This document shows, one piece after another, positions 6,001 to 29,741 of a stretch of 64,000 bases of DNA (the first letter of the stretch is position 1; each line of letters begins with the position of its first letter). The notes beneath the pieces are model-generated. The model searched no databases and was not told where the DNA came from. It saw only the letters and a list, made by a program, of their open reading frames with translations. The position numbers and the translations under genes are program-made. This DNA is from Euglena gracilis (taxonomy: Eukaryota): the NCBI GenBank assembly GCA_039621445.1, contig CP154954.1, positions 15,642,140 through 15,706,139 of the forward strand. The letters are read 5' to 3'.

Positions 6001-8272
6001 CTCACCCCCCCCCCCCACAGGGCCTTGTCACCTTGGGTCATGCGGGAAATCCACCACCCAGAAAATTGTTCCCAGAAAATTGTGCTCCAGTTTGTGCTTG
6101 CTGACTTGTCAGGTACTCACTTCAAGAGGTGGAATCCTTTTTTTGTCATTGTCTTCTTTCCCTTGATTACCTTTGGTTCGTTTTCGAAAAAAAAACCGAA
6201 AATTGGCTGAAAATGAAATGAAAAAAAAGGTGGCCGCCAAGAGGGTATCTCAAGTTTTTGCTGCAGATATATTCTGATTTGTTTACGTGGATGCAGAATT
6301 CACTCCTACCCCTCATTTTTGCCAAATGTTGATGATAGATGCAGAATTCACTCCTACCCCTCATTTTTGCCAAATGTTGATGATCTGCTACCGCCTGAGA
6401 TAATATGTGTTTCTTTTGTGTTTTTCTGTACTGATTTTCTTTTGGCTTACGTAATTTTTAGAGCTGGAAATGGGGATGAAATGTGGATCTAACTAAAACC
6501 TTAGTGCCAGAGAACGAGGAGGAGGAAGAAATGAGAGGTGAAATAATTATGCCATCAGGGCTGTTTTGAAATTATGTTCGGATCTAATAAGGTATTGATA
6601 TTTGTTGTCAGGAATTGTTGTCAGTTTGGCTAAACAGAATGCACGTTGTTTGGGGAACAATTGTCGTGGAATGCTGTGGATTAATTGCCGCTCAAGAAAC
6701 GAAACGAAGCCCGCTTTTGTGTTCTTCGGACGGGCAGGGCAAAGTCAGTGTAGGGCCTCGACCCAGGCTGGCGAAGTGGGTGGACGGCTGGCTGACCACC
6801 ATGGCGTGGAACCGGTTCACAGGGCAGGTGGAGCTGGTCCTCCGGCAGAGCACAGGGGCTCCCTTGTGCCACCCTCCCTTCCGGATGGGTTCCCCTCTCC
6901 GACTTCCCCGAAAGTGCATTCGAAGTACGTCCTTTTTTGACACACTTACTTTAGATTTAGATCCATCACGTACCCCCCTTGTGTGCGCTGTGGCTGTTTG
7001 TTTGGTGCCTTTTATCCCTTCTTTGGCCTGGCGCTGTTTTTCGCCTCTGGTCTTTTTTTTTGGTCTCTGTATGTGGAGGTGGTAGGTACACCCCCCAGTC
7101 TATTAGGAACCCCGCCAAAAATTGCTCTCTCCCCAAATAATAGCCTCCCTCGAATAATGGCCTCCTGGATTTTTGTGGGTATTCTGAGGGCAGTTCTGTA
7201 GGGACAATTTTCAACGCAAAATCTAACCCTGCCCCCCCCCCCCGATATTTTAACCAATTGTCTGAACAACCTTATTATGTTTTATGGGGTTTAGATTGCA
7301 GAGATTCTTTCTCACATTGTTTCCCCTCGAACCACAAGATCTGAACCAACCCCCTCCCCCCTAAATACCCCTCCCCCCTGAAATTGTCATCTCGGAAAAC
7401 TGTCACCTGAGCCCCGTGCTCGCTGACCTGTCACCACGGGCACCTGTCACCGACCTCTGTAGTCGCTGATTTGTTGACTTGGGAGTTTATATGTGGGTGG
7501 GGGAGTTTAACAAGAAGCTCCGTCCTATTTTTCAAAAAACGTGACGCCAAGATATGCATCTCCGTATTTCCAGGTGCAGTCCGAGAAAGATTTTTTGGTT
7601 GGAATTGGTTTTTCTGGGTCTCTTCGGGGGCATATGGTTTGGGTCTCTGGGAAGAGGGGGAGTCAGAGCTTTGGCACCAAAACCTGTAGGTTTACCTCCT
7701 TTGGGTAGAGTCTTGTATCTAACAAGCCACAAAGACTGGAGCTGTGTGGTCAGTGGGGTAGATCCAGCCGTCGAATCACGCAAAGTGCTTGATTTGGCCC
7801 GATTTTCAAATATAGCCAGGTCGATTTGAAGTGTGTCTGGGTGCCAAACCACAATCCAGTGATGTGAATCCCGTGTGTCAGCACGCAATATATCCTTTTT
7901 CAACCACAGTGTCGGGTTTCACAAGCCCTCCCTCCCAACCTAAGTGCCTGGAAGGGGTTTGGGAACTGCTCCAAAGTACAGGTATGACCCCGACGCAAAG
8001 CCGTTCCTTCCAACAGAACTAGTTTCCAAAGAGTGTCCCCAAGGCTGTCCCTGGGCCCAAATCGCGGCCCAGAACGGGACGGGGATACAGCTGACCATCA
8101 ACATTGGGGCCGCGACCATCAGCGATGAGCTGCGGAGCCAACTGAAGGGGTTCCCCGATGCCCAAGCGCCTCCGGCAGGTCACCTCCTCCTCCTCCTCAA
8201 TTCAAACCACGTGGTATTCAGGCCTTGGTCAAGAATCTCTTAACCAAAAAAGCCCAGCCAGCCAGCCAGCCA

Positions 8273-8303
<31 letters not shown>

Positions 8304-11300
8304 AGCACCTGTATTCCAGCACGCTTTCCAGCCAGCCGGTTGACCCCCCGGAGCCTTTCAAAAACCCGTGCTTAGCTGGCGCACAAATACTTCCTGTTGT
8401 ATGTCTGACCGGGTGTTTTATTAAAGAACACACACTTTTTTTTTATCTCGATGCCACACATGTGTAAACTCTTTTAACTTTCCGCGCCGTTTTTGCGGGC
8501 CTGAATGGTGAGACAACCACCCTGGGAGCCAGCCCAGTGGGGGTTGCTTGCCAGAGACCGACTGGTGCTCTTTTTCCGCCAGCCGCATGGCTACATGATA
8601 GCGCCCGGCGATGGTTTGCCACCGTTGATTTGCATCCACCCAGTCAACAGTTTGAAGATGGCCACCCAATTGCCCACCAACAGTTCACGGTGACAAAAAC
8701 AAAGGGGAATCCATGAAATATTAACCACTGATAACCGGGGGGGGGGTGCCAAATCTTCAAGAACTGTCGCTAACCACTGGGAGGTTTCCGTTCAATTCTG
8801 GGTGGTCCTCCTGGTAGTGTGTGGGGTTCAGCGGTGAGCTAAGCGTCAGATTAGGCGTTACTGCAAAACCACCAAGCCCTGACACCCACACCAGTCTGCC
8901 CCCCCCCCCTCGAATAGAAGCCCTCTCCCCAAATCTCCCAATAACAGGCCCTCTGGGCCCTCCCCCCCCAAAACCAAATGACAGCCCTCCCCCCCACTGG
9001 CCCAGCACTTTCGACCAAACACTACCCAAAATTGAGAGGAAATCTGCAAAATAGGTACATTCCAGAAAAAAATTGATATCTGTCATCCTTGGACCATCCG
9101 CCATCCACCCATAGCATCAAAAGTCACGTTTTCGACCTTTTTTTTTTTTTACTTTCAGACGCCGTTCGATCCCCGGACCACCCTCAGCTGCCTTTTGGCC
9201 GAAGTCAAACAAAGATACCCAAATAGAAGCCGTCCCCCATTGTGACCGAATATTAGCCCCAGGGGATTCTAATGGGGGGCCGTTCATACTGCCGCCATGT
9301 GGGGAGGTGTGTGCAGCAACAAACAGTACCCGACCCCCCCCCTTGTCCACTGACCACCCCTGAGTACCGACCACCCCCTTGTCGGGAGTTGCAGGGGGTG
9401 CATACGACCCCCCCCCCTGGTTGAAGGTTGTGGGTAACCTGGGAAAAACAGGTTTTTTTTTGGCACCCGCACACAAACACACGAACACACACATATGCAG
9501 AACACAGCGTTAGCATATTCCTAAACTTGCTGTTAAATGAATGCGACAGATACCCCTTCAACAGAGTGCCGGCATTCAATGCTGCGGGGGCTGTACCCGT
9601 AGCAACAGCTTGGGTCGGGGGTATGGTACAGACGGGGGTGGGGCTGGCACAAATGACTGAGAACTGAGGAATGGCCCAAGTCGCCCAACCCCTCACCCGA
9701 CCCCCCACCCCCCACATCAGGGGTTGCAAGTCAGATGATGCTTATGAGCTCCTGGTCGGGGGTTGTTGGAAATCGGTCGGTGGGCAAGGGGGGGGGGGTG
9801 TACAAAGCCAAAATGTTTTGGGCGCAGTGGGTTGGGGTGGTTGACCTTCCGAAGGCCATTGCTGAAGTGGGGTGGAGCAACTTCTGCAGAATTTTTTGTT
9901 TGATTGTTTCCATGTGCCAAGAAAGAGAAGGGCGATATCACCACAACAGGTTTCCTTTGGTAGGCAGATGTTTGCAATTGCAGTAGCAGTTGCAGTTTCT
10001 ATTGGCTGGAAAGGTGTCCAGCGTTGCGGCCTCTTTTGTCTCATTTGGCCGGGCGGGGTTTGACCCCCTGAGACACCGCCGCTCCCAGCCTCCCACGGGA
10101 AGTATTTCAGCCATAGCGACGTGGACGCGCGCTACATCAACCCGCTGCTGCACCCCCCGAACATCTCCGCCTACAGCCTGTGGACTTGCCTGCAAAGCAA
10201 GGCTTCACTTAAAACCTGTGTGACCGCGGCCCCAGGGGGGGAGGTCGGTTTTCGAGGGTGGGTGGGTGGGTTGGGGCCTTGGGACCCCCCCCCAGGGGTG
10301 GGATACACCTGGGTCAGGTTATTCCCCTGCTGAAGGCTGGACCGGATATTTTTTTTTTCAGCGGTTTCAATTTTGGCTGGATTTTGGGTGGGTGGTTGGT
10401 TGACCCCCGGCGGCGGGGGAGTCGTGGGTGGGTTCTCAAAAAAATGGGTGGGCGGGTTTGGGCCCGGGGAAAAGCCCCCCCCCCCCTCTGGGGTCACTGA
10501 GTGATTCCATGCTGCAGAGCAATGACGCCCTCATCGCCCTAGCCTGCCAGCAGCTGTATGGCAAGTACCAGGCAGGGGAAGGGCTCGCATCCTTATTTCA
10601 AAAGCACCCATGCGCAGGGTCCATCCACCCCTGCAACAAAAGGAACAACTTCACCACACATGGCGTGCTAAGAATCCAGCCACACACTTTCACCGAATCT
10701 TCAACAAGAACTTCTTTTACCCGTCAAGAAGGGGTGAGGTGGCTGAGGTGGGCATCTGGCTGGGAAGAGTTTGCAGCTGGACAATGGCTCAGCCTTGGGC
10801 TCAGATCCAGCATATCTGGTCTCCACTCAGGGATTTTGTTTAGTCTTGGACCCGGGGGGGGGGGGTAGGGTGGGTGGGTCCGGCCGAGATTTTTGGCATA
10901 TTCCGCGAGTTTTCGACCATTTTTGAGGAAAATTGAGTGGGTCCCCCGGGATCCCCGCCCGGTCTGAAGAAATCCCCTGTCTCCACTGTGTTGATTGAAC
11001 CGCCTTTGGGTCTTGGGTTAAAAGCCCTGCGAAACGAAAAACCATTTACTTTCCTAACAAATATACCGCCCACCCTCGGGAAACTATCATGTTGAGAAAT
11101 TATCAAGGTCTGCGGTACCGGCTGACAGTGGCCTGGAGGTTGGGGGGTGCTTGAATGGAAAGAAAGGCACTTCCTCTGCTGCCAATCATGGACAGCCATC
11201 CCCGAGATGAACCAGGAGATGGTGCTGGCGGGCCAGCGGTACTGGGTGGCCACCGGCTACAGCTCCGGTGATCGGGCCGGTGATGGCTGGATGCCTGGCT

Positions 11301-14300
11301 GGACGGCCTAGCGGAGCCGGCGGTGGCGTGGCAGAGAGGGGTCGCAACGGAAGTGCTGCCCTCCAGGGCAGCCAGCTCACCGTCGTATGGACGTGTGTAC
11401 GTGCAACAAATGTCCAAAAAAACGGACGATCGTTGCTGGCTGGGCCGACTCAGTCTGTTTCTTTCTGCAAAGAATTATAATGAAGAATATCGGGCTTCAA
11501 CTGAGAGCCAAACATCTCATTATCCAAAATTTCTGATGCCTCCAAAGTCCTGTATTTCAATGCCCCCCCCCCCCAATAAGGCCCGGGGCTCATTTTTGCA
11601 TCCGTTGCTGGAAACCTCCAGGGGGGTATTGTTATTTTTCGGGCCCGAAAAACATCCTTTTTTGGTTCAAATATGCACCAAATTTCACCTGCGGCGCTTC
11701 GCACCATGTACGCAGTGGCAGAAATTGAGATTTCACGTGGTTTTCTGCTCTCAAAATCACAATTTTCATCATTTTTGTGCCTATACTCTGGGATTTTGGT
11801 ATTTTTTTTTTCAGGGACGTTTTCTCCGTCTCCAGCTCTTTGCTTTTAACGTTGTGAAGGGTCTTATTTTTGGGTTTTTGCCAATCGACCCAGGGAAGAT
11901 TTTTTTGGGAGCGGGGGGTTTATTGGAACGTGGTCTTATTTTTGGAGGGGTTTTCATACCCATCTCCCGGATGAAATTGTCATGCCTCGGAAACCGTTGG
12001 AAATGGTCGACCAGTCATTTTCAGAATTTATCAGGGTCAGCATTCGTCGACCTGTCAGGAGACAGTTGTACCATATAGGTATGTTTGCACACATACATAT
12101 AATATCAAGTGTATGTATGTCTATGAATATGTAGACAGCAATTGGGCAAAACGAACCGGACACTCTTCCTCAAAAAATACCCACAAAATCTCAAGGGGGC
12201 AATCTCTCGTTTACTGTCCAACCCACTCAAAACTCCAGCAAAGCGGAAATTGGTTGCCTGGGAGCCATCCCCAAGAGAGGGGTGGAGGGGTGGCTTCTGG
12301 CGGTTCAATTTCTTGACTCGTCGCCGGCGAAAGTTGGACCCCCACCAAAAAAGACCCACTGATTGAATCCCGGCTGAATCTGCAAGTATGTATTTTCTGC
12401 CTTGTGCTCTCGATCTAAATTTCATTTTGCATGATTGCTGCCAAGTAAAACCCCCCAATTAGAAGCCCCCTGGGGCTACTATTTGGTCACTCTGCGGAAA
12501 ACCTGGGGGGAGGGCTTCTGACTGGGTACCCTTTGGCTAAAGGAAAAACATTTGGCCGGTGGCCGATCCGGGGATCGAATGGGGTCCAAATTTAATAATT
12601 TGCAAGCCGTATTTTTTTTTGAGTTTTGTGTGGATAGGCCATGTTTCAAGGACACCAGATATCAGTTTTGTTCCCGATGTCGACCTGTTTTTGTGGAGAT
12701 TTTTCGAGGTTTTCACTGTTTTTCGGAAATTTTTTCTGTCAACTTTGTCGGCCGGCTTCGTCGGGGAGGGGGGGGGGCTGTTGTTTGGGTTTTTGGTGGG
12801 AAACCCGGGGGGGGGGGGGTTTTATTTGGGGGGGTTGTTTTTTTTTGGGGGGGGGCTTTTAATTGGGGGGTTTTATGCCATCAGATGGTTTCCATTTCCG
12901 GCCCCGGCCCGGCCGCACCCTGCAGTGCACGGTGCTGATGCTGAAGTGCCGGGCGTCGGTGATGGGCAGCATCGACGCCAGCAACGCCTACGTGGACCAG
13001 TCTGTGTCGGACAAGAAGGGGGTCACACCCGGGGTGTTTGGACACTGGAGTTTGGGTCCCGGGCCCAAGCAGAATGATGACATATTTTGAGTAACCTTCC
13101 TTGGCGCTTTTTGTTGAAGTGCAGTGTTTTTGACGTTGACACACCTCATGTGCCAACAGCACATTGCGTTGCAGTTTCTTGGACAGCGGGGAAGCTAGTT
13201 GGTCAGAGGTGGTTAGGTATCTGAACTGCTGTGTTTCAACATTTGGTTTGTGATTGTTCACAGGGGTTTCAGCACGTGTTGCATTTCGTGTTTCCATCTC
13301 TATTTCTGGGCAGCATTTCTCCGGGGGCACCTCGTTCAATTTCCCCCCAGAAGAGCTATTGACTGTGCGGGGCACAGGGCAGGGTTTGATATAAGGAGGG
13401 CGTACATGGTTTAGGTAGGGGGGTCCCCCAACCCCCCCCCCCTGGCCCGCAGGGGGGGTCCGGACCACCCCCCCCCACCTGCCAGGGGGGGTCCGGACCG
13501 ACCCTCGGGGGGGTTCCCGGGACCCCCCAAAAAGGGTCAATTTTTTCCTCCGGCGCTTCGCGCCGAATATTTTTTTTGCATTTTTGGCACATTTTTTGCC
13601 CAAAAAGTGCCCAAAATGGCACTTTTGGTCGTTTTGGGGGTCAAAAATTTTCGGCCACCCTGACCGCGCACCTGTTTAGGTGGGGGGGGTGTCCCCCCCC
13701 ACCTCCCCCCCCTCCTGGCCCGCAGAGGCCCCCCCACCTGTCCTTATATCGAACCCTGCCACAGGGGTGTGGGTGAACGTGGTCGACCCTCCGCCGCCGT
13801 TCGTCATCCTCGGAGTGGTGAGCGCCGTTGCCGTCCTGCTTCCCCTCAGCGTAGGGTTGTGGCTGGCGACGCGGCTCTATATGCTCGCACGGGGAAGCAG
13901 GGCCTGTCCCCACACCGGTTCATGAAGTGGTCCCCCCCTCAGACTGTCATTCCTGAGATGCCAGATGTCACTACAGGTAGCCTCCAGGCAGCCCCAGGGC
14001 GGTCCTCAAGGGACAACCCTTAAGATTATTATTTATTTGTTTTTATCTGGACTTTTATCATGTTCAGGACGACCCCTTAAGGAGCACCCTTCGGCCAAAG
14101 GGCTGGCCAAGGGCTGGACCGAGGTCTGAAAGAGGTCAAAACTTAAAAAGCCGATAATCACAGTTTTTCATCTTTTGGCTGGTTTGGCCCAAGGATGCCA
14201 GAAACCTTTTTTTTTCCCCCTGGCGTCAACCTGTATTCGCCAAGAAACTTCACAGAAAGCCTTTTTGCCCATTTTCCCGGTGGCTTTTCAGTTGAGTGCC

Positions 14301-14749
14301 CTGGGACTGCAGATTGTCTATTTCCATTCTTTGTTTCGTTCGCTTAATGACCGCCCTGGGCAGGCCAGAAGCGTCTGCCTTTTGCTTCTGTTTCCACGGT
14401 TTCATTTGTGGTGCTGATCAGGCCAACGGGACGGGCCCTGCCCCCGATGGACCGCATCGCGCAGCTGCAGTTCGCGACCACCGCCCCGCCGCCCACCGTG
14501 TTCCGGGAGCTGCACCGCTTCCAGGCCTCCTTCGTCCAGATGGAGCGCGGCCTGCAGGCGTTCGGGAAGTTCGTGCCGCACGGCGTGGTGAAGGTGCTGG
14601 GCAGCCCGGGATTACAATTTGGGAGATGTGCCACGTCTGTTGTTGAATTTCTGTTTTCTTCTTTTCTTCTGCCACCCCCCCCCGGTTGAAGTGCAGTGTC
14701 GCAGATAGACCTGTTGCAGCAAAGCGTGCGCGCTGTGGGTCTCTGAACT

Positions 14750-14791
<42 letters not shown>

Positions 14792-17700
14792 CGTCCGTGC
14801 GTGCGTGCGCACGTGCGTGCGTGCGCGCGTGCGTGCGTGCGTGCGTGCGTGCGTGTGTGTGTGTGTCTGTCGGTGGGGGGGGTGGGGGGGTGGGTGTAGT
14901 GTGTGCCAGAACCAAGGACCCTCTCAGTTTCCCGGGCGGGAATCCAACAGGTTCTCAGGCACATGACAATTTCCTCGGGGGGGTTGTCCTGTGTTGTTGG
15001 TGTGCAACGTGCTCTGCTACACACAGACACACAGACACACAAGACACATGGCACATAACATATGTGCACACAGGCGTACACACACCTTGCCTGGTGTCAT
15101 TAGAAGAACTACCTTACTTTTCATCTTGTTTGGTTGAAAGTTAATTGGCCAGTAATGGGCGTTAATTTGGGTACTTTTGTGGTCCGGCCCACTGGCAGTT
15201 GAAACCAGACTGGGCTGCAAACCCAGCTGGACTGCACTTTTTTATCCAAAGTTTTGAGGTACACCCCCAAAACCTCAAAAATGCCATTTTCGGGGGTTTG
15301 ACCCCGTTTTCCCCCAATGTTTTCGGTGCTTTGCACAGAAAATGTTTCGGTTCATCCCGGTTTTGCCAGGCTTACAATAATTATTTTCCCTTCTTGACCC
15401 CCCTTGAGGGGGGGGCTGGCTGGGAGCTGCTGGCCGGATCTGGGAGATGCTGGCTGGCTGAACCCAAGGGTTAGGGTCCTTCCAGCTTGAGAAATAATGA
15501 TTTCAGCCCACTGGATGGAAGAACTTGCTGGCTGGATAGAAGATGCTGGCTGGACCCAGCCAAAGTCGCCAAGTGTAAAACAGGAAAATTGCCTCTCTTT
15601 GCCGGGGTGTCTCTTGGCCCACACTCGCCAAACTGGTCTTACAGCGGGTTAGCCTCCCACACCGCCAATTTGGCCGAAGCCAATATTCTGGGGAGGTTTG
15701 CATGCCACCCCCCCCCTCCCCCTGGCTTGTTGCCCAAGCCAGAACTGCCATAGTCAGTGGGGTGACTCTTTGCTCTTTGGCCTCATACTGCCACAGGTCT
15801 TTGGAGCTGATTAACCCAAAGTTCCCCCCCCACCTGGCTTCTGGTGCCAACATGCCGAGCAGTATGTGGTTCTTCTCACCCAGTGAACTCAAGGCAAATG
15901 CCATTGAAGGCTCTCCGAACATGTGTAACCTTGCCAGGATTTTCAGGAAGCCCTTCGGTATTGAGGTGGGTGATTGGGGAGGGGGCCGACGATCCCCCCG
16001 GGGGATAAGGTGAAGGAAGGGGGTCTGGACCAGATGTCGGGAGGGGGGTCCGGACCACACCCCCCTCCTCAGCAGATGATTGATGGTTTGGTGTTTTCCA
16101 CATAAATGTTTCAAATTTCATAAATTTCAAAAAAATGAGCATTTTTGGATTCATTTTCAAAGAAAAAATCAGGGGGTTTTTGAACAATCTTGGCCAATTT
16201 CCTGCCCTTTGCCCGTCCATGAAACCGAAGGTTTTCCAGGCCCATGTGAGTTTCGAGGTAGGAGGGGAGGGGTCCAACCCCCCCCCCCCTCAAGGCTTCC
16301 CATCTTTTCCAATCAGGCTGATTTCTAAGGCAAGGCCAACCCTCCCCCCCCCTCCCCCCGGAGCTATCCTGGTCAGGCACTCCAAAGCACCCAGGTTCCA
16401 CCTCTGGGGGGGGGTACATGGCTAAAATTGCTTTGGGCACCAGTTTTTGGATCGCTGTTCTGTTCTGGTTCGCTAATTCTGGCATAATGGTTCGAAGTAC
16501 CCGGGGGGAGGGGTTCAGCTCGACTGCAGCTGTTCCAAATTTGGCCAGTGGAAACCCCAGTGTCCCTGGATCCAAGGTATGGAAATTTTTTCCAGTGACC
16601 GGCATGAAGCGCTATAAAATTTATTGACCCCCAAAACCTGCCAAAATGACCATGTTTGGAAATTTTCCTATTTTTTGAACAAAATCGGGCAACAAAAACA
16701 CGGCAAAAACATCTTTTTTTTTACCTTGGCACACAGCGCCAGAAGAATTTTTTTCTGGTTGGGGGGTGACGAAGAGGGGGTCTGGCTACCCCCCTCCCCG
16801 GGAAACTATCATGCCCGAGAACCTGTCAGGGTCCCTCCCGGGAAACTGCGAGGGTCCTCGTTACCAGCCAACTGTTGGCAGGGTCCCCGGTACCGGCCAA
16901 CCTGTCAGGGTCATTTTTTTTCAATGATTTTCCCCTGAAATGCCCTACTGGGGGAACTGTCAGGGTCCCGCCCAGGAAACTGTCAGGGTCCTTGGTACCG
17001 GCCAACCTGTCATGACAGGAAGTTGTCAGGTGACAGTTTCCCAGGGGGGGGATAGGTAGTGGCTTTTTCTGGTGTCTGCTGTAAAAGCTAGCTGGTCTAC
17101 CTCCTCGGGGTCCTTATGCAACAGCCTTCTGGGCACTCAGGCAAGGCACTCCTTGTGCCGGAAGCCTAGAAAAGCCCATTTTTGGGCATTTTGACCAGGC
17201 AGGCACGGCCCCAGGGGGGGGGGGTATTGGCTGCCTGCCCAGGCAGCCCGAGGCACCCTGGGGAGGCCGCCCCCCCCCCCCCCCCCGGGGTTGTCAAGTT
17301 CAGCCTGCCCTCAATAAGGACCATCACTGGACCTAGTAAGGAGAGTGCTGGAATTGTATCGAGTCCAAGTCGTCGTCCAGGGGCTGGCTTCAATCGCTGG
17401 CCAAATGAAGGCAAACGATGAGATGCATCCCACGCAGGCCAGCCACCAAACAGCAGGAGTGGAGCACAGGGTTTCCCACTGTGGGCTGTTCCACCGACGT
17501 ACCACACACTCATTGTATACCCTATCAATCTAATTACTGCTGCATTTCAGACTTCACTATGTAAGCAAATGTGCGCACGGGCAAGTGGGTGGGGGGTACC
17601 CATCTTTTCCGGTCCTTAGACGGGGGAGAGTATGCACATAATTTCGTCGCATATGTATCATGAATCCCACAACGTGTAGTTCGCTCCGCAAAGACCGCAA

Positions 17701-20700
17701 AGAAAGTGTTCACCCAAGTCAGTTAAGAAACCTGCACTCCAACAAACGTGCTCACCCAGTGTCCAGCATCCTCCTCAACTGCGACTAATATGGTGGTGCG
17801 GGAGCAATAATCTAAATTATCCAGGAGGGAAAATTGCTTTAACTGGCTGGTGTTACTCACCTAAAAAAACAGGTGTATTTTCTTTTGTAATATGAGTGTA
17901 CTACTGAGAATTATTTTTTTTTTCATAATGTATATAATTTGGATGACGTCAGTTATTTGAAACAACTCTTCACATGTAATTTATGAATTTTTTTGGGTGT
18001 GCAATTTTGTGTTTCACCGTCCGCAAACAGTTTCAAGGATTTAACTATTGATATGTAACACTCAAAACCGCGCAGAAGGAGGCAGCCTGCCCCCAGGATG
18101 CTGACAATCATGTTTGCGGACATCGAGGGCTTCTCCACCATTTGTGAGAACGAGTTCCCCGCCGTTCTGGTCTCCGTGTGCACGGAGTACTTCGAGGCCA
18201 TGTGCAGTGCCCTGGGTCCCCAATGCCGCCACGGAGCTGCTCGAATTTTTTTTAAATGGCAATATGCTGGGTTGAAAAAAATACCCCCCATTTCCAGGGG
18301 TTGGTCAAAGATTATGAAACCACTAAAAAACAATCGCTCACCTCCAGAAAAACCACCCAGTCAGCACCGTGGGTGAGTGGGTTTTCGAAAAAAAAATGGT
18401 TTTGTGGGTTCCCCCAAGGTGCCCCCCCCCCCCTGGGTCACTAAGTGAATCTATGGTCACAACCCCCTGGGCCACATTTCTCCTCTACTTTCGGTGCCAA
18501 CTCATTTTGCGCCTCCTTCTGGGAGTTTGGTAACAAATTGTGTGATGCCTTTTTTTCCGCTCACCTTTCGGAGGCATTCCTTTCCTCTCCGGGCTGGACT
18601 CAGCTGTCCAACATCGTAGGACGCAACGGCACCATTGACAAGTTCATTGGCGACTGCATCGGCAGCGTTGCAGTGGGTGGTTTTGAAGTTGCGTCTGTTC
18701 AGGGGATCCGTCCATTAAATGTTATGCATTTCATGTGTTCAGTGATCCCTCAATTTCCATAATTATCGACACTCATTTTATTCGTTTGTCAACAACACTC
18801 GTATGCTTCTTTGCACCGGACCATCCATTCACGATCCTGTCAGCCTGTGCGACCCCCGGCCCTGTGTACGTGTCACCGCCACGTTCACAGACACAAATGG
18901 CCAGAGGCCAAAGTCACGCCAGGCCGGAAGAAGGGATGAATGGCACGAAGCAAACAGCCACAGTGCAGTGGCGTTCACTTCCACAGCTACCTACCCCAGG
19001 GAGATTGTCACGCCAAGAACCTGTCAGGGTCCCTGGTCCATGACTGGAATTTGGAGGAAGTTGAGGACCAAGGGTCCTTGGTCCCGGCAAACTTCAAGAC
19101 CCAACCCCGGACATTTTCCCGGTCCTGTCAGGTGACAGTTTCCCGAGGGGCATGCCAGACTCCACTGCCGTGCTGTGCCATGGCGATGTGGAACGCACCG
19201 GACCGGCTCCCCAACCACGAGAGGGACGCCGTGGCCGCGTCGTTGGCGATGCAGGACGCCCAGGGGCTGTGCCGCGAAGGCAACTCGCGTGCGGGGTGTG
19301 GCGGACGGCAGGTGTGCAGTGTGGTGCGGGGTGCACGGTGGTGCGGGGTCTACCCCAGTCACATCGTGGCCCCCCGGTGTGGTCCAGACAGGGAATTTTT
19401 TACGTTTGGACCCCCGGGGGGGAGGGGGGGGGTAGGGTGGGTGGGTCTGGCCGAGCCCCCCCCCCGGGGAGGGGGGTGGGATATACTTTTCGGCGCCGCA
19501 GGCGCCGAAAAAATTCTATTTTAGCACTTTTCGCGATTTTCGGACATTTTTTTTGTGGGTCCCCCGGGACCCCCTCCCCCCCCCCGGTCTTAAAAAAACC
19601 CCTGGGCCCAGAAGCTGGCCCAGAAACCCATCTCCGGAACAAACGTCCCCCCCACCCGCCGACCCATTTCTGTTTGCCCGGTTTGCCGGCCCCTGCCGCT
19701 TGCGTCATGGACCTGCACCGGTCGTGGAAGGACCGCGGGCTGCCGGTGCTGAAGTTCCGCGCGGGCATCCACACCGGGGAGTGCCTCGTGGGCAACTTCG
19801 GCCAGGGCCGGTCGCGTGCCTGTCTTCGGTGCCCTCTGTGCCCATTCCCGGTTTGTCAAATCACCCCCATTTCCATCGATGGTTGTATCGTGGAATGGCA
19901 TCACCCTTGCTACCCCATGAGCGAGCCTCAGGTGTTCGTGTTCCTCTAATTATGCTCCCCCCGGACCTCCCTGGAGTCAGCCTCCCCCAGGATTGCAACC
20001 TGACAACAGCCTGATTGGCCGGAACGTTGAGACCCTGACACCGAGGACCCGCTGTCGGGGAGGAGTGAAATGAGCGTTCCTCAAACGTGAAAGTTTTGCA
20101 GAAACTTTCAAGCAGATGCCAGAATCAACCCGTGGATGCAATCACGGGATTGTCCCGAGCTGACAGGATACCACTCTTGCTGCCAATCTCGTTTACATTG
20201 GGACTGTTTCCCGCTCGTCTGGCCAACAGCTCCGGCCCTGGGGCGGGCTGCAGCTACCGCGTCAGCTACACCTGCCTGGGCGACGGGGTGGCCCAGCCCC
20301 CTCCCGATTGACCCACTGCTCACCTGCTGTGTGGAGTTGACCTCTGCAACCAAAATAATAGTGGCAAATGGCCAAATTTGAATACATCTGGCAATCAAGA
20401 ATTGTCTCCCCCTCCATAAACCATGTAATTGAGTCTGGGTCAGAATGGAAAAAAAACACCCAAAATGACTATTTGTTGGAGATTTTTGGAGATTTTGTTT
20501 GTGGCTGTACCCACCTTTTGCCCGACTAAGTACCGACCACCCCCCCCAGTCGGGGATTGCAGGTCAGGGGGGTGCGTGACCCCCCTGGTCGAGGGTTGTA
20601 GGAATCGGTGGGTACAGGGAGGGGACTCTTTGGAAACAGTGCAAGTATTTGGGCTTCAGAGTTCTCAATATGTGTTCCACCTGGATGTAACATAAACTGC

Positions 20701-23700
20701 AAGGCCTGCGTGTTGGCTTGGTTGGGCAAAAACAGCACGCTGGCATGTGGTGGTGAGGGCTTCCAGCCAGAACAAGGTTCCTTACCATGCAATCACTGAG
20801 TCACTGGCCGACCCCCCCCCCCCTGGGTGGGTGGCTGGTTTTTCAGAGTAACTGACTGGTTTTTGGCCTGGCCCCCTCCCCCCCGGGGGGTTCGCAAAAA
20901 AACCACTAAAGTGACCCGGCGCCGAAGGTGCCGGACAAAGTTTTTGGCTTTTTTTTCATGTGTTTTTGGTCAAATTTCCTTTGGATTCTAGAGTAGCCGA
21001 CCCCCCCCCCTTCCCCCAGGGGGTGGTGACTGACTGGTTTCCCGGAAAAAGTGACTGGCTGGTTTTTCGAAGAGTGGAGTGACCCCTCCCCCCGGGGGTC
21101 GGTAAAGCATTGCATGTTCCTTACCTGAGGAAGGGCGCTGCCTCCCAACCTGTCCTCTCGCCTGGAGGCACTCAATAAAAAGTTTGGGGCCAGGGTGCTT
21201 CCAGCTGGAGAGCCTCTTCAAAGGCTTGTCCCATATCGTACCGTCCCTCTCCTGGCCAGACAGCAGGAAATGCACTTGAAAAAATAACCCAATGAAAGAT
21301 TTGTTTCTGCACAAGAGAATTTCCTGTCAATCGCACATTGTTGCATTATGGGTATCCCAGGACAGTGCTCATGTGAATATGTGAATGAAAGGAGGCTGGT
21401 TATGGGAGCAGGCTTTTGCTTAGTCGTGTGCCCACCTCACGGGGGGGTGCTAGGGGCAGGCATCTCGTCCGACCCCCCCGGGGGGGGGTCGAGTTTTTGG
21501 GGGGTGCCTGCCCATAGCAGGCACCCCCTCCGCCCCTGGCGCCGAAGGGCCCGGAAAAGGCCATTTTCAATGAAAAATTTATGGGCCCCCCTGGACCCCC
21601 CGGAGGGTGTGCCTGCTAGGGGCAGGCACCATATAGCACCCCCCCCTCCCCCCCCCCGGTCGGCCTGAATGGGAGCATAGCCAGTCTCATTTTGCGCTTT
21701 ACCGCAGAGCCACTACTACCCCCCCCCCCCTATGTCCAACGACCACCCCCTGGTCAGAGGACACCTTTTCGGAGGTTTGACCAAATTTTTGGTCCCGGCG
21801 TGAAGCGCCGGGACCAAAAATTTTGCCCAAAAATTGGCCAAAGGTTACCGGTCATTGGACATAAGGGGGGGGGTAGGGGCTCTGCGGTACCCCCTTTTTG
21901 GGACACAGTCTTGTAAGTTGTCCGAAACTTTGTGTGGCGACATATGTGGAGAGTATCCCCGGTGGGGAATCACACACCAAAATCCATTTTTCACCAGTCT
22001 CCGTGTATTTTTTTTGGAAAGGACTTCATTATTGTCATCTTTTTTTTAAAAAAAAGAAAACGCCCTGCCGAGGACGTTCATCTGCGTCTCCCACTCCACG
22101 TACGAGGCGTGCCAGCACGACTTCCATTTCCGGAGGCTGGCGAAGGTCACGGTGCCTGGCAAGGCCACCCAGGGACCAGTGGTTCTCCCGCATCGACGAG
22201 TTTTTTTTCCATCTTTTATTATATTTTTCAGCCTTCCTTCGGGTGGCTGGATGGTGATTTTTTTTTTGGCTTTCAGAGATGCAAAACGGGCCAAAAATGA
22301 GCCAAAGTGGGTCAGAAAAGGGCTGGGGCGTATTTGGGGTTTAAAGCTGACTGGTTTTTCAATAAAAAAAGAAGTGGCTGACTGGCTTTTGGAAGTGTGG
22401 AAGTAACCCCTCCCCTCCCCTGTTGGTCGATAAAATTCTAAACCACACAAATTTTGGATGGTGAGGGAGGGGGAGTTGGTGCAGTTGGTTTTCTGGGTCG
22501 TGCTACAAAGGCGTTCATTTGCTCAGCCCTGCCAGAGAGGTGCTTCCGGTGTACGAGGTGCTGTGCGAGGCGGGATGCGTCGAGACACGGACCCCCAAGG
22601 CCGCAGACCTTCCTGGACAGACAATTGCTTAAGCACTGTCCCACCCCCCCCCCCCCCCCCGGGGGGGGTGGGTGACTGGTTTTTTCAGAGTGACTGACTG
22701 GTTTTGGGCCCGGACCCCCTCCCCCCCCCCGGGGGGGTCGGCCAGGAGTGGGCAAAAGTGGCTTGAGTGACCCCGGCGCCGAAGGCGCCGGAAAAAATTT
22801 TTTGGCCTGAAATGGCCTAAAGTGACTGGAAAGTGGCCGTTTTTCTGAGTGGCCGACCCCCCCCCCGGGGGGGTAGTGACTGACTGGCTTCCCAAAAAAA
22901 GTGACTGACTGGTTTTTAAAAAAGTGGAGTGACCCCCCCTCCCCCCCCGGGGGTCGGTAAGCAATTGTATGTTCCTGGAACAGTCGGCGTCGACGTGCAG
23001 AGAGAGCCTGTGAAGCCGGCCAATCGGTGTCAAGTCTGGCTTGTGGTCCCCCAATTTGAACTCCGGACTATTCTCTCAACCTGCATGGGGTCCAACGTTT
23101 TTGTTCATCCAGTGCACATTCCCAAGTCAGATCAGTGACCAACCTCTGAAGTTGCAATGCCGATGTTGCAGAGTGTGGGTTCAGGGTGCCCACCCCTCCC
23201 CCTCCCGGGAAACTGTCGCAGAAGGTGGGAGTGGCCAACCAGTCATGAGAGGAAGTTTCCAGGGTCCTGGCACTGGCCGACCTGTCGAGTTAACTGCTTC
23301 CTCGGGGAGGGGGGTGTTAGGCAGGTGCTTATTCTGCTGCTGTTCTCTGGTTTCGTTTCACAAACTGTTTTTTTTTTGTTTGATGGAATGTGGCTTAATG
23401 CGTGCGATCGGCGGACACTCATTGCCTCCGCCCAAGGAGCGGCGGTACTCCCCGGCGCAGCGGGTCAGCGTGGCGGACGGCCTGCTGTTGCGCGGCCCCA
23501 CCAAGACTGGGAACAAACCGGCCGACCAGTCCCTGAATGGTGTCCCCCCTTCAAGCCTGCCCATGCGAAGCACGGAGGGTGAATGGTGTGGCTTTCCCCA
23601 CTGAATCTGCTGCATTTTGAAGTTTTTTGGGGGGGTGAGAAATGATTCATTAATCCCACCGTCATCGAAGGGAGATACAAACAGAAAAGTCGCGTGGTTG

Positions 23701-26020
23701 GCAATGATACTTTTCAGGTTTTTCAAAAGATAATCATTTCTTCGATGCAAAAATCCGAGTTATGGCATTCCCCTGTTATCATTTTAGGAGTATTAAAGGA
23801 GGTGGTTGTATGGCAAGTGTGTATATATGTAAGTCTGTGTGGAAATTATGCAAATACATGGCAGCCTCGGTCTATTTGCCCCCCCCCCCGGGGGGGGCAA
23901 GCAGAGTGATCAATGGGGGGGGGGTCGTGTGGAGGGACCCGTGTCCGACCTTCGGGGAAATTTGGGTCTAGGGTTAGGGTTCCAACCAGATACCCAGAGG
24001 ATGTACATTTTTAGGAATTTAGGCAGACGTCAGGCCGCATGTGGGAGCCAGTGGACCGAATTCAGGGGAATTCTTTTTGGTAAAACATGTATTCAAAAAT
24101 CTTCTGAAAATGGGACCTGATTGCGGGCCTAACTTCGTCCTAAAATGGACCAGTTTTCGGGGCAATCCCAACCCTAACCCTATGCCAACAATTTAGGGGG
24201 AATCCTCCTTGATTCCACTGCCGGTTTCCCTGAAACCGCGTGTTTCCCAGCGCCGTGGGGCCAAAACAAAAACAGAAATTTGGATCTGGGTCCCCCATAC
24301 CAGGGGGGGGGGGACTCAAACAGGAAAAATTGCTGTGGAAAAATTCAGAACAAATTTTTGTTTAGGATTATCCCCACAAATTTTGCGAAATATAAATTTT
24401 CGGCACTCCGTCAATTCAAAATAAAATAATTTTTTGCCTTATTTTTTGGAGTTTTTTTTTTGCAATTTTTTTTTTGGAGTTGTGACAACCTCGAATTTTG
24501 GTGTGATTTCTCTTGTGTTTCCCTGAAAAGTTGGTTCACAAGATTTTTTTGTTCAGAATCTTCCCTGGGGGCCCGCTTTTCAGCGAGCAATTAGTAAATA
24601 ATAAATAAGCGAGCGTCCAATAATTTTTCCCGTCGGCATTTGTTCCTGTTATTTTCCCCCCGGTATCCCCCCCCTGATCATTCTAATTTCCCCCCCAGGT
24701 GAGAAAGTAGAGTGAGGCTGCCAGATATCCATATACATATACACACATACATGCATATACAGAATAACATATGCATACATAAACCCCACCCCTCACTTAT
24801 AACCCCCCCCACTTATAACCCCCCCCACTTATAAACCCCCCCCCTCGGGCCGACCAGCCAAACCGGATCGATCCTATAACCCCCCCCCCCCCTGGGGAAG
24901 AAAAATGGAAACCGCCGGGGACGATTTTTTTTTTCAGCCGCAAACCACTGAAAAACTGATTTTTGGCATTTTTTTGAGACCGACCATCATCATAATGCCA
25001 TTTTTGACCAAGTTTGCCAAAAATTGCCAATTTTAGGGGGTTTCGAGGGCATTTTTTGGGGTCGGATTTTGACCAACAATTCCGTATCCTATAAAACCCT
25101 CCCACCTATAACCCCCCCCCCCTCAGGCCGACCAACTAAACCGGATCCTATAAACCCCGGGCAGTTTATAAGTGGGGGGAGGGGTTTACACATGCATCAG
25201 GGGGGGGAAATGCGCTGCGCAGTTTTGCCCATTTTTGTCAATTTTTCAAAAATGCGCATTTTTGTGCATTTTTTTGCGCATTTTCCCCATTTTCCCACTT
25301 TTTTTTATACACTTTTTGGAGGCATTTTGTCCATATTGTCCATGTTGTCCACATTGTCCATATGTCAAAAACAAACTTGACATTGGTGTTATTCAACACC
25401 GTTCTTCAACACCAATCAAATCACATGCTCACCGAATTTTGCCCACGTTCAAGTAACCCATTTCTATAACCAACGAACCCATTTCCGCACTTTTTTTTCC
25501 ACCCAAGGGACCCGCCTCAAGAAAAAAAACCCTTGGGTGATGAGGTGTGGGTACTCATCCAATGATGATGAGACACTAGGGTTTTCAGAGACCCCACATC
25601 GAATCCTACTCCCTTTGTCACCAGTAAGGGGCAACCATGGCTGACATTGTTGGTTATGGTGAACAGAGAGTGACGCCTTGCTCGTGCATTTTTTTTTATA
25701 TACCAAAAATGCCTTTATTTCAGCTGTTTTTGATGACTTTGGTTTAATTTTGGGCTTATTGTTGGAAATTTTTCTGAGTCCTTTTTCCCTTATGAATGTA
25801 CAAACTCAGCGCATTTTTTGCGCATTTTTTTTTGCGCATTTTTGCGCATTTGTTTTTTCCGGGGGCCGTCCAGAGCATCCCCCCCCGCATACATGCACGC
25901 ATACATACACACAAACATGCACACATGCATGCATACATGCGTACATTCGTATATGCATACAACAGACAGACAGACAGGCAGACAGATAGACAAACAGACA
26001 GACAGGCAGGCAGGCAGAAC

Positions 26021-26052
<32 letters not shown>

Positions 26053-27839
26053 TACACGCATACGTACATGTAGCATATTGCACTCACAGACACATTCAAA
26101 AACAAGCACACACATTGCCATGCATTTGGATAATATGTTACGCACCATCATACACTTTTATTTTCCCTTGTGGGAAGCATGCCTATTTTTTTTTTTTGAC
26201 AGGGCAATTCTGCTCGAAATATTTATTTCCTCGCGTAACAAGTTTTTTTTTTTAAAGCGTCATGGCACGAACTCGCGAAACGTTGCGCACGATTTCGGTA
26301 ATTTCATCTCTGAGCCATGTGCTTTCCTTCGCTGGGCTTGAGCGACCAACACCAGGTAGGAGTTGTCCCCGGCCTGCCCCCGGCCAGGTGACCTATCACT
26401 GGACACTTGTGGACCGCGCGGTGCTCCTGCAGTCAGCCGAGGGGTACGAGGAGGCGTATGCCGCCATGGTGGTTGGCGGCCAGTCTGCTGTGCCGTGCCA
26501 TGCCGTGCTGTGCCGGCTGGTTTTAATGTGTGCTCTCGCCCAGGTGTCGGATGTTGTGTGTTTCGGAACTGGATGAACTGGGCCAAATTGTGCCATTCCG
26601 ATGCCTGATGGAATGCTCTGATGAGATGTTCAGTTGAGACAGCACCCAGGCGACCTAACTTGCACTCAATCTGTTTTGCATGCCATTGCGCATGCGCTCA
26701 GCATTCGCTGTCCTGCAAACCCACCCTTTTGGTTCTTTAGCCCTGTGGCAACTGTTCCTTGTTTTGTCCAGTTTTAAATCCAATTCCGAAATTCCTTGAA
26801 ATGGGACAAAACACCCGTGCTCAGTCCCACGTTTTTGTACCCCTCAATCTATTTCTGTCCCTCCTGTGCAAGCCAGGTGAAACTTCTGCCCTTTGTGTTG
26901 CTTTGTGAAGTGCTGTGGCATGTATAGGGTTCCTGCCAAGTCATCCAGGGGGTGGACTCTACATCTACACTGTTCCCCCCCTTGTCTAAGCCCCCCCTCC
27001 CCGGTGATGACCCATCTTTTTAAAGGTCATCTTCTCGCGGAGGCTTTTTTTGTGTGCTTTTTTAGAAAATTTTCTCGAGAGTTTGAAAATTATTGAAACC
27101 TCTGAAGCCTGATATGGTGAGACATTGTTGATTTTTGCATCCAAATGCCTGTGAGTGCAATAGTGGACCTCCAAAATAAGGGTAACCCCCCCTAATAGAA
27201 GCACGGGGCCGCTACAAGCGCAGGGTCCAAATAAAAGCGCACCCCCCCACCGCCGAAAGCGGCGGTCTGCTACAAGCGCACCCCCCATTTTGATAGGATT
27301 TCTAAAGGAAATCAACAAAAATCGCGCAGGTACGGCCCAAATAGAAGCGCACCCGTGCTTCAATTGGGGGGGGGTTAATTTTTCCTTTTTGGCGTGAAGT
27401 GCCGGATTTTTTTTTTGCAAGTCAAAATTTCCCCCTTGTCCAAGTACCAGCCCCCTGATGCTTACAAATGTTTTCCAGTGCTTAGACAAGGGGGGGGGGG
27501 GTATGCTCCCGATTCTCTGGCACTCCGTGTTTTCAGCTTCTCCCAACTCTGAAATAGCCCGGCTTGCACGTCTCATTTCCAAGGCACGGCGGTCTGCTGG
27601 GGACCAACAACGGGCGCGGCAGCTGCTGGCGGCCAACCCGCTGCTGGACCCGCCGGATAAGGCGTGGGCCGCCCTGGCTGCCCAGCCAGGGCTCAATGGG
27701 AATCCCCGCAACCCTGTGGGTGGTGGGTGGGGGGGGGCCGACCCCCCCACCAGGCCTTCCCGCACAGCCCTGCGCCCAGCTGGAGCACGCGGAGGCCGGC
27801 CGGCCATGGGACGGCGTGTTCTACTTCAAAGAGAAGTGA
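75..27839 (+). CDS. Membrane receptor-type class III adenylate cyclase (TM - extracellular region - TM - HAMP-like - cyclase - C-terminal helical tail), 5'-partial, about 29 exons
   Basis: Inferred exons: 75-215, 1492-1591, 1846-1881, 4486-4575, 5156-5287, 5823-5900, 6765-6849, 8059-8159, 8556-8602, 10087-10194, 10517-10569, 11184-11269, 12917-13026, 13799-13894, 14446-14598, 17392-17431, 18095-18208, 18610-18660, 19180-19257, 19701-19799, 20246-20290, 21147-21187, 22073-22166, 22537-22614, 22977-~23021, ~23416-23503, ~26378-26477, 27602-27683, 27778-27839. Joined, they give TIMFADIEGFST...GTIDKFIGDCIMAMWNAP...FRAGIHTGECLVGNFGCSYRVSYTCLGDGVNLSSRLEALNKKFG...WDGVFYFKEK*. A few boundaries (5287-6765, 23021-26378) are approximate. 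Confidence 0.9.
6290..6384. repeat. 48-bp tandem duplication
   Basis: gatgcagaattcactcctacccctcatttttgccaaatgttgatgat occurs twice. Confidence 0.9.
10195..10516 (+). other. Nonconventional intron with residual 8-bp TSD
   Basis: Flanks are ctgcaaag (10190-10197) and ctgcagag (10512-10519), with imperfect terminal pairing. Removal gives WTCLQSNDAL. Confidence 0.75.
10828..10979. mobile_element. CAGGG-ended MITE with 8-bp TSD (hAT-like)
   Basis: cagggatttt ... aaatcccctg, with TSD tctccact on both sides. Confidence 0.8.
13380..13758. mobile_element. CAGGG-ended MITE with 8-bp TSD (hAT-like)
   Basis: TIR cagggtttgatataagga / tccttatatcgaaccctg, with TSD gcacaggg / ccacaggg. Confidence 0.85.
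13799..13894 (+). CDS. Adenylate cyclase exon: second transmembrane helix
   Basis: FVILGVVSAVAVLLPLSVGLWLATRLYMLARG is a hydrophobic stretch and is in frame with both flanking exons. Confidence 0.85.
13895..14445 (+). other. Nonconventional intron with 13-bp terminal stem
   Basis: aag-CAGGGCCTGTCCC ... GGGACGGGCCCTG-ccccc|G. Splicing is in frame (ARG|MDRIA). Confidence 0.85.
14446..14598 (+). CDS. Adenylate cyclase exon: HAMP-like/helical linker
   Basis: MDRIAQLQF...FRELHRFQASFVQMERGLQAFGKFVPHGVVKVL resembles the HAMP-to-cyclase linker ending F.KFVP. Confidence 0.85.
14752..14866. repeat. (GT)n/(GCGT)n microsatellite
   Basis: Direct inspection. Confidence 0.95.
18095..21187 (+). CDS. Adenylate cyclase catalytic-domain exons
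   Basis: Metal-binding Asp residues (FADIEG, IGDC), adenine-specifying Lys (DKFIG) and Thr (YTCLG), and transition-state Asn/Arg (VNLSSR) are all present. Confidence 0.92.
19389..19604. mobile_element. CAGGG-ended MITE with 8-bp TSD; related copy at 35717-35989
   Basis: cagggaatttttta ... taaaaaaacccctg, with TSD ggtccaga / ggcccaga. A very similar body occurs at 35717-35989. Confidence 0.8.
20786..21116. mobile_element. MITE, same family as the intron at 22618-22971
   Basis: TIR catgcaat / attgcatg and perfect TSD ttccttac (20778-20785, 21117-21124). The body is collinear with 22618-22971 (gtgactgactgg motifs, cggcgccgaagg hairpin, agtggagtgaccc...gggggtcggtaa end). Confidence 0.85.
21409..21667. 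mobile_element. CAGGC-ended MITE with 8-bp TSD; related to 29531-29741
   Basis: caggc...gcctg, with TSD tatgggag / aatgggag. It shares the ggcaggcacc..atagcacccc motif with 29531-29741. Confidence 0.75.
22615..22976 (+). other. Nonconventional intron that is a complete MITE (element 22618-22971)
   Basis: TIRs cagacaattgctta / taagcaattgtatg (13/14) and a perfect 8-bp flanking repeat ttcctgga at 22610-22617 and 22972-22979. Removal restores the frame (DLP|GTV). Confidence 0.8.
25963..26052. repeat. (CAGA)n microsatellite
   Basis: Direct inspection. Confidence 0.9.
26975..27501. mobile_element. PolyC/polyG-capped MITE (ttgtctaagc TIR); partial copy ~33608-33900
   Basis: Cn-ttgtctaagc ... gcttagacaa-Gn. 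A homologous body occurs at 33608-33900. Confidence 0.7.
27684..27777 (+). other. Short nonconventional intron with residual 8-bp TSD
   Basis: agc-CAGGGCT...AGCCCTG-cgccc, with flanks tgcccagc / cgcccagc. Removal gives AALAAQLEH. Confidence 0.8.
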
Positions 27840-28364: not shown

Positions 28365-28661
28365 CAGGCCGTATGTTAGTCGGGTGCCGACCCCACCCCG
28401 GAGGGGGGGGGGGTGCCTGCCTGGGCAAGTACTCCAAGGCACAAAAATCCGACCCCCCGGTTGGGGGAAGGGCACTCGGTCAAAAGTGCCTAGCAGGCAC
28501 TCCTGCGCCGAAGGCGCGGAAGGCTCAAACAAAGCCTATTTTCAAGGAAAATGGCCTATTTTCTGAGGAAAGTTCCTGGGCACACGCTGAAATCCGACCC
28601 CCCCCGGGGTAGGCACTCAAGTCCGGACCCCCCTCCCCCGGGGGGTGGTAAAAACAGCCTG
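28365..28661. mobile_element. CAGGC-ended MITE with perfect 8-bp TSD
   Basis: caggccgt...acagcctg, with TSD gctggggc on both sides. An empty-site paralog lies near 32535-32580. Confidence 0.85.
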
Positions 28662-29530: not shown

Positions 29531-29741
29531 CAGGCTTTTTTTTTTTTAGTTGGGTGCCTACTCCACGGGGGGTGGGTGGACAGGCACCCCTGTCCGGGAA
29601 ACGATCCCGTTTTCTTTACCCTGTTGGCAAGGACCCAGCCGACCCTGGGTACCCCGGGCTGCCCCCCCCCCCCCCCCGGGGGTGTGCCTGCTATGGGCAG
29701 GCACCCCATAGCACCCCCCCGGTCGGTAAAAAAAAAGCCTG
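29531..29741. mobile_element. CAGGC-ended MITE with 8-bp TSD
   Basis: caggcttttttt ... aaaaaaagcctg, with TSD cggagaac / cggggaac. Confidence 0.8.

Follow-up and report, generated by a model that had tools for sequence, protein, structure and literature searches.

Nonconventional introns of Euglena follow a code that has been defined genetically as 5'-N3CDG-/-CH'GN5-6|R, with a strict 5' spacer of 3 nucleotides (nt) and a 3' spacer of 5 nt, 6 being tolerated (Nomura et al. 2025, PMC12501133). The earlier motif consisted of CA at +4,+5 and TG at -7,-6 (Milanowski et al. 2014, PMC3935182). Whether such introns originated from transposons is a question that was put explicitly in 2014 and has stayed open (PMC3935182, PMC6221363, PMC12501133, PMC12621601). 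An origin from miniature inverted-repeat transposable elements, or MITEs, has been a hypothesis since that year (PMC3935182); a 2024 review repeats it and draws terminal inverted repeats and repeats resembling target-site duplications (TSDs) (PMC11282704). In 2025 the 'origins ... remain unclear' (PMC12501133), and the MITE origin is still a hypothesis in PMC12621601. Intron 4 of gapC in E. agilis ACOI 323 is a strain-specific, recent gain with eight-nucleotide repeats at its junctions (PMC4770533). Outside the euglenids, introners are spliceosomal introns born from transposons in Micromonas, Aureococcus and dinoflagellates (review PMC11282704). Here we describe an intron in a receptor-type cyclase gene of Euglena gracilis, located in a 64,000-nt stretch of contig CP154954.1 (the window, in whose coordinates all positions are given). 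The intron coincides with one MITE-like element, E1, plus one copy of its TSD, and it is removed precisely from RNA. The features at the site, obtained by direct reading of 20400-23600 and from the RNA described below, are as follows.

22618..22971, + strand: E1, MITE-like element of 354 base pairs (bp)
22610..22617, + strand: TSD copy 1, ttcctgga; its first 5 nt are exon and its last 3 nt are the intron 5' spacer in the register of the code
22618..22631, + strand: 5' terminal inverted repeat of E1, with its tip CAG at intron +4..+6
22958..22971, + strand: 3' terminal inverted repeat of E1, with its tip ATG at intron -8..-6
22972..22979, + strand: TSD copy 2, ttcctgga; its first 5 nt are the intron 3' spacer, and the exon restarts with G at 22977
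22615..22976, + strand: nonconventional intron of 362 nt in the register that fits the code; RNA permits 22610-22971 through 22618-22979
22537..22614, + strand: upstream exon, with the cyclase domain's end and the first part of a variable linker (contig pieces 22537-22609, paralog alignment)
22977..23015, + strand: downstream exon, linker region (joints 22609>22972 and 23015>23428; spliced frame open)

The TSD of E1 is perfect on both flanks (8/8 bp). The inverted ends, CAGACAATTGCTTA at the 5' side and CATACAATTGCTTA as the reverse complement of the 3' end, pair at 13 of 14 positions, and the interior holds CnGn palindromes together with repeated GTGACTGACTGG modules, and a GGCGCCGAAGGCGCC hairpin lies at its centre. 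An earlier note on this DNA had proposed 14-bp terminal inverted repeats starting CAG and a perfect 8-bp TSD, and had placed E1, a sibling and both TSDs; on reading the sequence all these coordinates hold and the repeats are present, paired as above. A scan for perfect 8-bp flanking repeats with at least 10/12 inverted ends, within 3 kb, gave 24 matches in the window (8 of them non-low-complexity by our own reading of the list) as compared to 0-1 in each of 20 Markov-shuffled windows. The TSD and inverted-end anatomy of E1 is not due to chance. E1 shares with MITEs the terminal inverted repeats bordered by a TSD, and its family shares with them the dispersed copies with different flanks and TSDs (64 kb surveyed).

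Removal from RNA was followed over 7 kb (17500-24500), using the contig sets X1, X2 and X3, which come from three studies and are listed as probable RNA, and the raw reads of the RNA-Seq run X21. One contig of 471-481 nt in each set carries all five of the joints given below, and read pairs of X21 support each of them.

20290>21147: skips 856 nt, 0 ambiguous letters, 3 read pairs
21186>22072: skips 885 nt, 2 ambiguous letters, 2 read pairs
22166>22537: skips 370 nt, 0 ambiguous letters, 9 read pairs
22609>22972: skips 362 nt, 8 ambiguous letters, 2 read pairs
23015>23428: skips 412 nt, 3 ambiguous letters, 3 read pairs

The fourth joint is that of E1: its 362-nt skip equals the 354-bp element plus one 8-bp TSD copy, and its 8 ambiguous letters are the TSD. 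The exact skip that the earlier note had expected across this junction is thus found in contigs of all three sets, with depths of 62.1 (X1), 19.8 (X2) and 39.5 (X3), as well as in X21. With the 362 nt deleted, frame 22465.. continues into frame 22920.., and six exon stretches joined by script gave a single open frame through the cyclase motifs and across the site. The proposal that removal of 22615-22976 restores the cyclase reading frame was thereby confirmed, with the same joint present in RNA. If E1 were retained, the protein would be cut short by a stop that lies 3 codons inside it.

Template-switching artefacts occur at hairpins flanked by repeats, and the direct repeat around a structure of -189 kcal/mol is a favourable geometry for them. 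The skip could then reflect a reverse transcriptase switching template across the 8-nt repeat rather than splicing. We regard this as extremely improbable, since in each of three runs, which come from three studies, the only contig to span the exons carries the joint, at a depth equal to that of the neighbouring joints, and since its 2 read pairs in X21 compare with 2-9 on the four neighbouring joints. In addition, retention would truncate the protein, and introns of such geometry splice in vivo with rescue of a phenotype (PMC12501133). Among the joints listed in the 7-kb mapping, there was no back-splice joint at the borders of 22615-22976. Because homopolymer reads raise the depth over E1, we drew no conclusion on copy number from it. 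At the CnGn tracts 21639-21657 and 22640-22661, hundreds of reads of X21 run out into long poly-C stretches, and 0.97 of the X21 material placed continues unlike the window sequence, a technical pitfall whenever depth is estimated in this genome.

No GT/GC-AG (or AT-AC) pair is present in any of the nine registers compatible with the mRNA. The register 22615-22976 reads GGA-CAG...ATG-TTCCT|G (N3-CAG...ATG-N5|G). Compared with the published code, it has C-D-G at +4..+6 after a 3-nt spacer (GGA-CAG) and a 3' spacer within the 5-6 nt range followed by a purine as first exon base (TTCCT|G), but it lacks the complementary C-H'-G at -8..-6, where ATG is found. The tips therefore pair as C:G and A:T, followed by a G.A mismatch (position -8 = A). 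Single substitutions within CAG or CTG of a test intron each abolished function (PMC12501133). The long 13/14 stem may compensate for the mismatch in E1. RNA folding of the intron gave -188.7 kcal/mol (z -3.8 against 100 shuffles), and both the minimum-energy and the centroid fold close it on its terminal stem, so that its ends are paired. The published code is thus not strict, a CAG/ATG pair being spliced here, where the stem is long. The four neighbouring introns conform to this geometry, with the following borders.

20291-21146: CAG/CTG, N6|A
21188-22072: CAG/CTG, N5|G
22167-22536: CAG/CTG, N5|G
23018-23429: CAA/TTG, N5|G

The E1 intron shares with euglenid nonconventional introns the non-GT-AG borders, the 3-/5-nt spacers, CAG at +4..+6, the purine as first exon base, paired ends and precise removal from mature mRNA. 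It differs from them in the 3' motif ATG, the unusually long stem (13/14), the full 8-nt border repeat and an interior that belongs to a repeated element family. With introners it has in common that the borders are set by element ends and TSD and that an exonic insertion is erased from the mRNA; the intron equals element plus a border supplied by the TSD (362 = 354 + 8). Introners, in contrast, are excised by the spliceosome at sites of GT-AG type and are found as large sets of near-identical introns, whereas the E1 intron has nonconventional borders without spliceosomal splice sites, and one of the three E1-family copies seen is an intron. The term 'introner-like', used in the earlier note, is apt as an analogy for an intron made of element plus TSD, but not for the borders, which are not spliceosomal. 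The other two copies of the family are as follows.

20786..21116, + strand: sibling E2, 331 bp, with TSD ttccttac at 20778-20785 and 21117-21124, nested in intron 20291-21146
22330..22436 (approximate), + strand: third copy, truncated to the family's 3' half and lacking the terminal repeat, in intron 22167-22536

The TSD of E2 is a perfect 8 bp and differs from that of E1; its perfect inverted ends are merely 8 bp long (CATGCAAT), and its tips are CAT...ATG. A blastn search of both elements against the window aligned E1 and E2 at 73% identity over 335 columns (E 7e-46) and returned, besides each other, short CnGn palindromes only. The third copy was recognised from the alignment and from repeat families D4, D6 and D20. 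E2 lies wholly within the 856-nt intron defined by the RNA joint 20290>21147, away from the intron borders; alignment and joint together bear out the earlier description of a collinear copy inside another intron with its own perfect TSD. A sibling with a different TSD is the signature of mobility in this family. An X1 contig that matches E2 from 20790 onward only, with 254 unrelated letters preceding, and a 60-nt contig that matches 22804-22863 with one difference suggest more copies of the family.

The direction of events could in principle be reversed, an excised circular intron RNA having been reverse-transcribed and re-inserted, so that the MITE copies derive from the intron; full-length circles have indeed been reported for excised nonconventional introns (cited in PMC11282704, PMC12621601). 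However, E2 ends at the same inverted-repeat tips as E1, has its own 8-bp TSD and in the alignment carries none of the 8 bases that flank E1, and neither poly-A nor another mark of a retro-copy was seen. An 8-bp duplication from a staggered cut is the signature of a cut-and-paste element. We consider the reversed order very unlikely.

Some further sequences resemble the family. Another X1 contig, with a depth of ~1,793, is E2-like up to 20820 and continues as E1-like from 22664; it represents either a third, abundant member of the family or a chimera that assembly produced via the CnGn tract. Two more palindromic elements are present in intron 21188-22072, namely 21424-21660, which has a central GGCGCCGAAGG-type hairpin like E1 and E2 (repeat family D9), and 21700-21889, with a comparable central hairpin near 21800. 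The common central hairpins suggest a modular element architecture. A metagenome scan with a first family pattern gave no match, and a second pattern matched 2 contigs, of which the one examined (L001) was an unrelated 25-nt tandem repeat.

Elements with similar tips are found elsewhere in the window. A relaxed scan (CA...TG ends, at least 8/10 inverted bases, at least 7/8 flanking repeat) gave 13 elements, as compared to 1-5 in ten shuffles. Eleven of the 13 are CAG-tipped, 10 starting CAGG and E1 starting CAGAC; the remaining ones are E2 (CATG) and 51734-52383 (CATT). Besides E1, at least nine further MITE-like elements have CAG...CTG tips and TSDs of 7-8/8, namely:

10828-10979, 28365-28661, 32357-32580 and 54790-55167: CAG...CTG elements with TSD 8/8
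13380-13758, 13995-14358, 19389-19604, 29531-29741 and 36235-36788: CAG...CTG elements with TSD 7/8

A longer end, CAGGGCGGTC, is common to the elements at 13995, 32357 and 36235, and a subterminal ...TCGGTAA motif recurs in several elements as well as in E1 and E2. The element 19389-19604 sits within the RNA-defined intron 19258-19700. The element 13995-14358 was considered as a second case of an intron equal to a MITE and was rejected, since paralogs put the exon start at ~14432-14447 and not at 14364. Continuity of the frame across the other TSD-flanked elements is uninformative because long open frames are common in GC-rich DNA.

These elements also bear on whether E1 is an older, ordinary nonconventional intron, with repeats that come from selection for splicing or from filler DNA of double-strand-break repair and not from transposition. 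Short direct repeats border 84.4% of E. agilis introns (PMC12501133). Intron 4 of gapC is, like the E1 intron, nonconventional with eight-nucleotide direct repeats at its junctions, and it is ascribed to double-strand-break repair (Milanowski et al. 2016, PMC4770533). No related copies of the gapC intron are reported in the accessible passages of that paper, whereas E1 has a sibling with its own 8-bp TSD, which points to transposition. That sibling lies 1.5 kb away, off the intron borders and with a different perfect 8-bp TSD. The family has a third, truncated copy, and the at least nine other CAG...CTG elements have flanking repeats of 7-8/8 where shuffles give 1-5 elements. Moreover, splicing needs no match between the 5 intronic bases of the repeat and the exon. 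An older, ordinary intron is therefore improbable.

We consider it highly probable that a MITE inserted into the cyclase exon and that it is removed, together with one TSD copy, by the nonconventional-intron pathway. An intron that equals element plus TSD, precise removal from mRNA, lack of a GT/GC-AG pair and a sibling off the intron borders together argue that a mobile element's insertion gave rise to the intron, probably in one step. A non-autonomous DNA transposon (354 bp, 14-bp inverted ends, 8-bp TSD) would have inserted into the exon coding for the post-catalytic linker, and the inverted ends of the pre-mRNA would pair and draw the borders together. Cuts, presumably enzymatic, would be made 3 nt ahead of CAG, the 5' tip, and 5 nt beyond ATG, the 3' tip. 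Since 3 + 5 equals the 8-bp TSD, element and exactly one duplicate are removed, as shown at this locus, and the pre-insertion frame is restored. The E1 locus thus provides direct evidence for the standing MITE hypothesis, as an RNA-verified intron whose borders are the insertion scars of a repeated family. Our literature search, with subscription journals and supplements outside its view, found neither a nonconventional intron shown to lie in a repeated element family nor a link of the 3 + 5 spacers to an 8-bp TSD.

Several points weigh against this interpretation. The sets X1-X3 were assigned to RNA by guess only. Poly-C/G reads swamp the depth over the element and, with it, any estimate of the share of transcripts that retain E1. 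The ATG in place of C-H'-G breaks the letter of the code, yet the E1 intron is spliced. As E2 has the tips CAT...ATG and E1 itself ends in ATG, the 5' CAG of E1 may be a later change, so that E1 may not have been spliceable from birth. The sibling is merely 73% identical and the window has two full copies only, so that recent activity of the family is not established. No autonomous partner was seen, and none of the 10 open reading frames scanned, out of the 18 longest (at least 230 amino acids (aa)), matched a Pfam family or a transposase. Finally, P0001, a product that lacks the 362 nt and is described below, is possibly from a partly processed transcript and was not counted as an empty site at the DNA level. 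The earlier note had spoken of a recent gain in which a MITE is born spliceable; the gain of an intron from an element insertion stands, on the precise removal from RNA, whereas its recency and spliceability at birth are not established. Membership in the hAT superfamily named there is likewise not established. MITEs of this superfamily share with E1 the 8-bp TSD (also seen in E2), the short terminal inverted repeats and the small size, but no transposase or autonomous partner was seen here. A hAT target-site consensus was dropped from consideration, as the TSDs here fit it inconsistently.

The state of the repeats is in favour of youth. The TSD of E1 is intact and its ends pair at 13/14, while the corresponding 8-mers of neighbouring introns match at 0-4/8 (by eye, in three introns, the intron with the N6 spacer left out). 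The E1 intron is probably the youngest among them. P0001 is the 104-aa product of a 1,208-nt contig that maps to the window in three collinear pieces (22454-22501, 22510-22617 and 22977-23135). The 362 nt are missing from it, but portions of both flanking introns remain. Downstream, 5 residues are changed, in addition to the called start residue. If the contig is DNA, it shows the site empty in an allele, paralog or strain with differences at 5/104 residues; if it is RNA, it merely shows that the E1 intron leaves before its neighbours. Protein searches for filled and empty forms of the site returned nothing with the upstream reading frame as query and P0001 only with the others. The P0001 contig also lacks 8 nt of the upstream intron (22502-22509), an indel between variants of the locus.

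The split of an 8-bp TSD into 3 + 5 may be the general reason for the 3/5 spacer rule, as the further CAG...CTG elements of the window, with TSDs of 7-8/8, suggest. On a broader view, for which we would give somewhat less than even odds, the splicing code is the imprint of one transposon superfamily, with CAG...CTG as the tips and the 3- and 5-nt spacers as parts of the TSD. If so, any such element in an exon would be erased from the mRNA, TSD included, from the moment of insertion, and most nonconventional introns (~72% of E. agilis introns) would be old insertions of that kind. A preference for Y|R at both borders has been published (PMC6221363); it would be explained by such an imprint, as both borders would copy positions 5|6 of one target site. 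The 3 + 5 = 8 rule ties an experimentally defined splicing code to transposon geometry and can be checked on published intron sets. In the E1 intron, +1..+3 (GGA) are able to pair with -5..-3 (UUC). We speculate that, with a 3/5 stagger across such a continued helix, the excised hairpin retains a 2-nt 3' overhang, a geometry that might match the product of an RNase III-type cut with subsequent ligation, as has been proposed for nonconventional introns (PMC12621601).

The host gene encodes a receptor-type class III adenylate/guanylate cyclase and has many short exons.

97..27836, + strand: host gene, receptor-type class III adenylate/guanylate cyclase, ~820 aa (tblastn, PF00211)

Pieces of the cyclase are visible in stop-to-stop frames, two of which match PF00211 collinearly (profile 9-43 and 98-125 of 183); the shortness of the exons keeps either match under the threshold. 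With the frame at 14351 as query, a library search gave 22 relatives, and tblastn of three of them (P0004, P0006 and P0005, with 826, 829 and 545 aa, respectively) mapped in order along 97-27836 on the + strand. The catalytic domain ends in a conserved ...EVLPVYEVLC, and E1 inserted directly after it. The linker at this site varies among paralogs in length and sequence, and paralogs align up to the preceding exon. Within 18204-18625, the two flanks of several contigs align but enclose 12-19 other letters, and many variant positions have high depth, a pattern that points to numerous expressed cyclase paralogs. Rfam and tRNA scans of the window gave no match. Intronic microsatellites of dinucleotide or short period at 14700-14950 and 25800-26100 are seen as His/Thr/Arg- or Cys/Val-rich frames. 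In the part of the gene coding for the C-terminus, a predicted 1.1-kb intron (26478-27601) is flanked by GTCTGCTG at 26483-26490 and 27592-27599. Two in-frame junctions are possible for this intron, and the predicted junction that complies with the code, 26478-27601 (N3-CAG...CTG-N5|G), matches the spacing of the paralogs.

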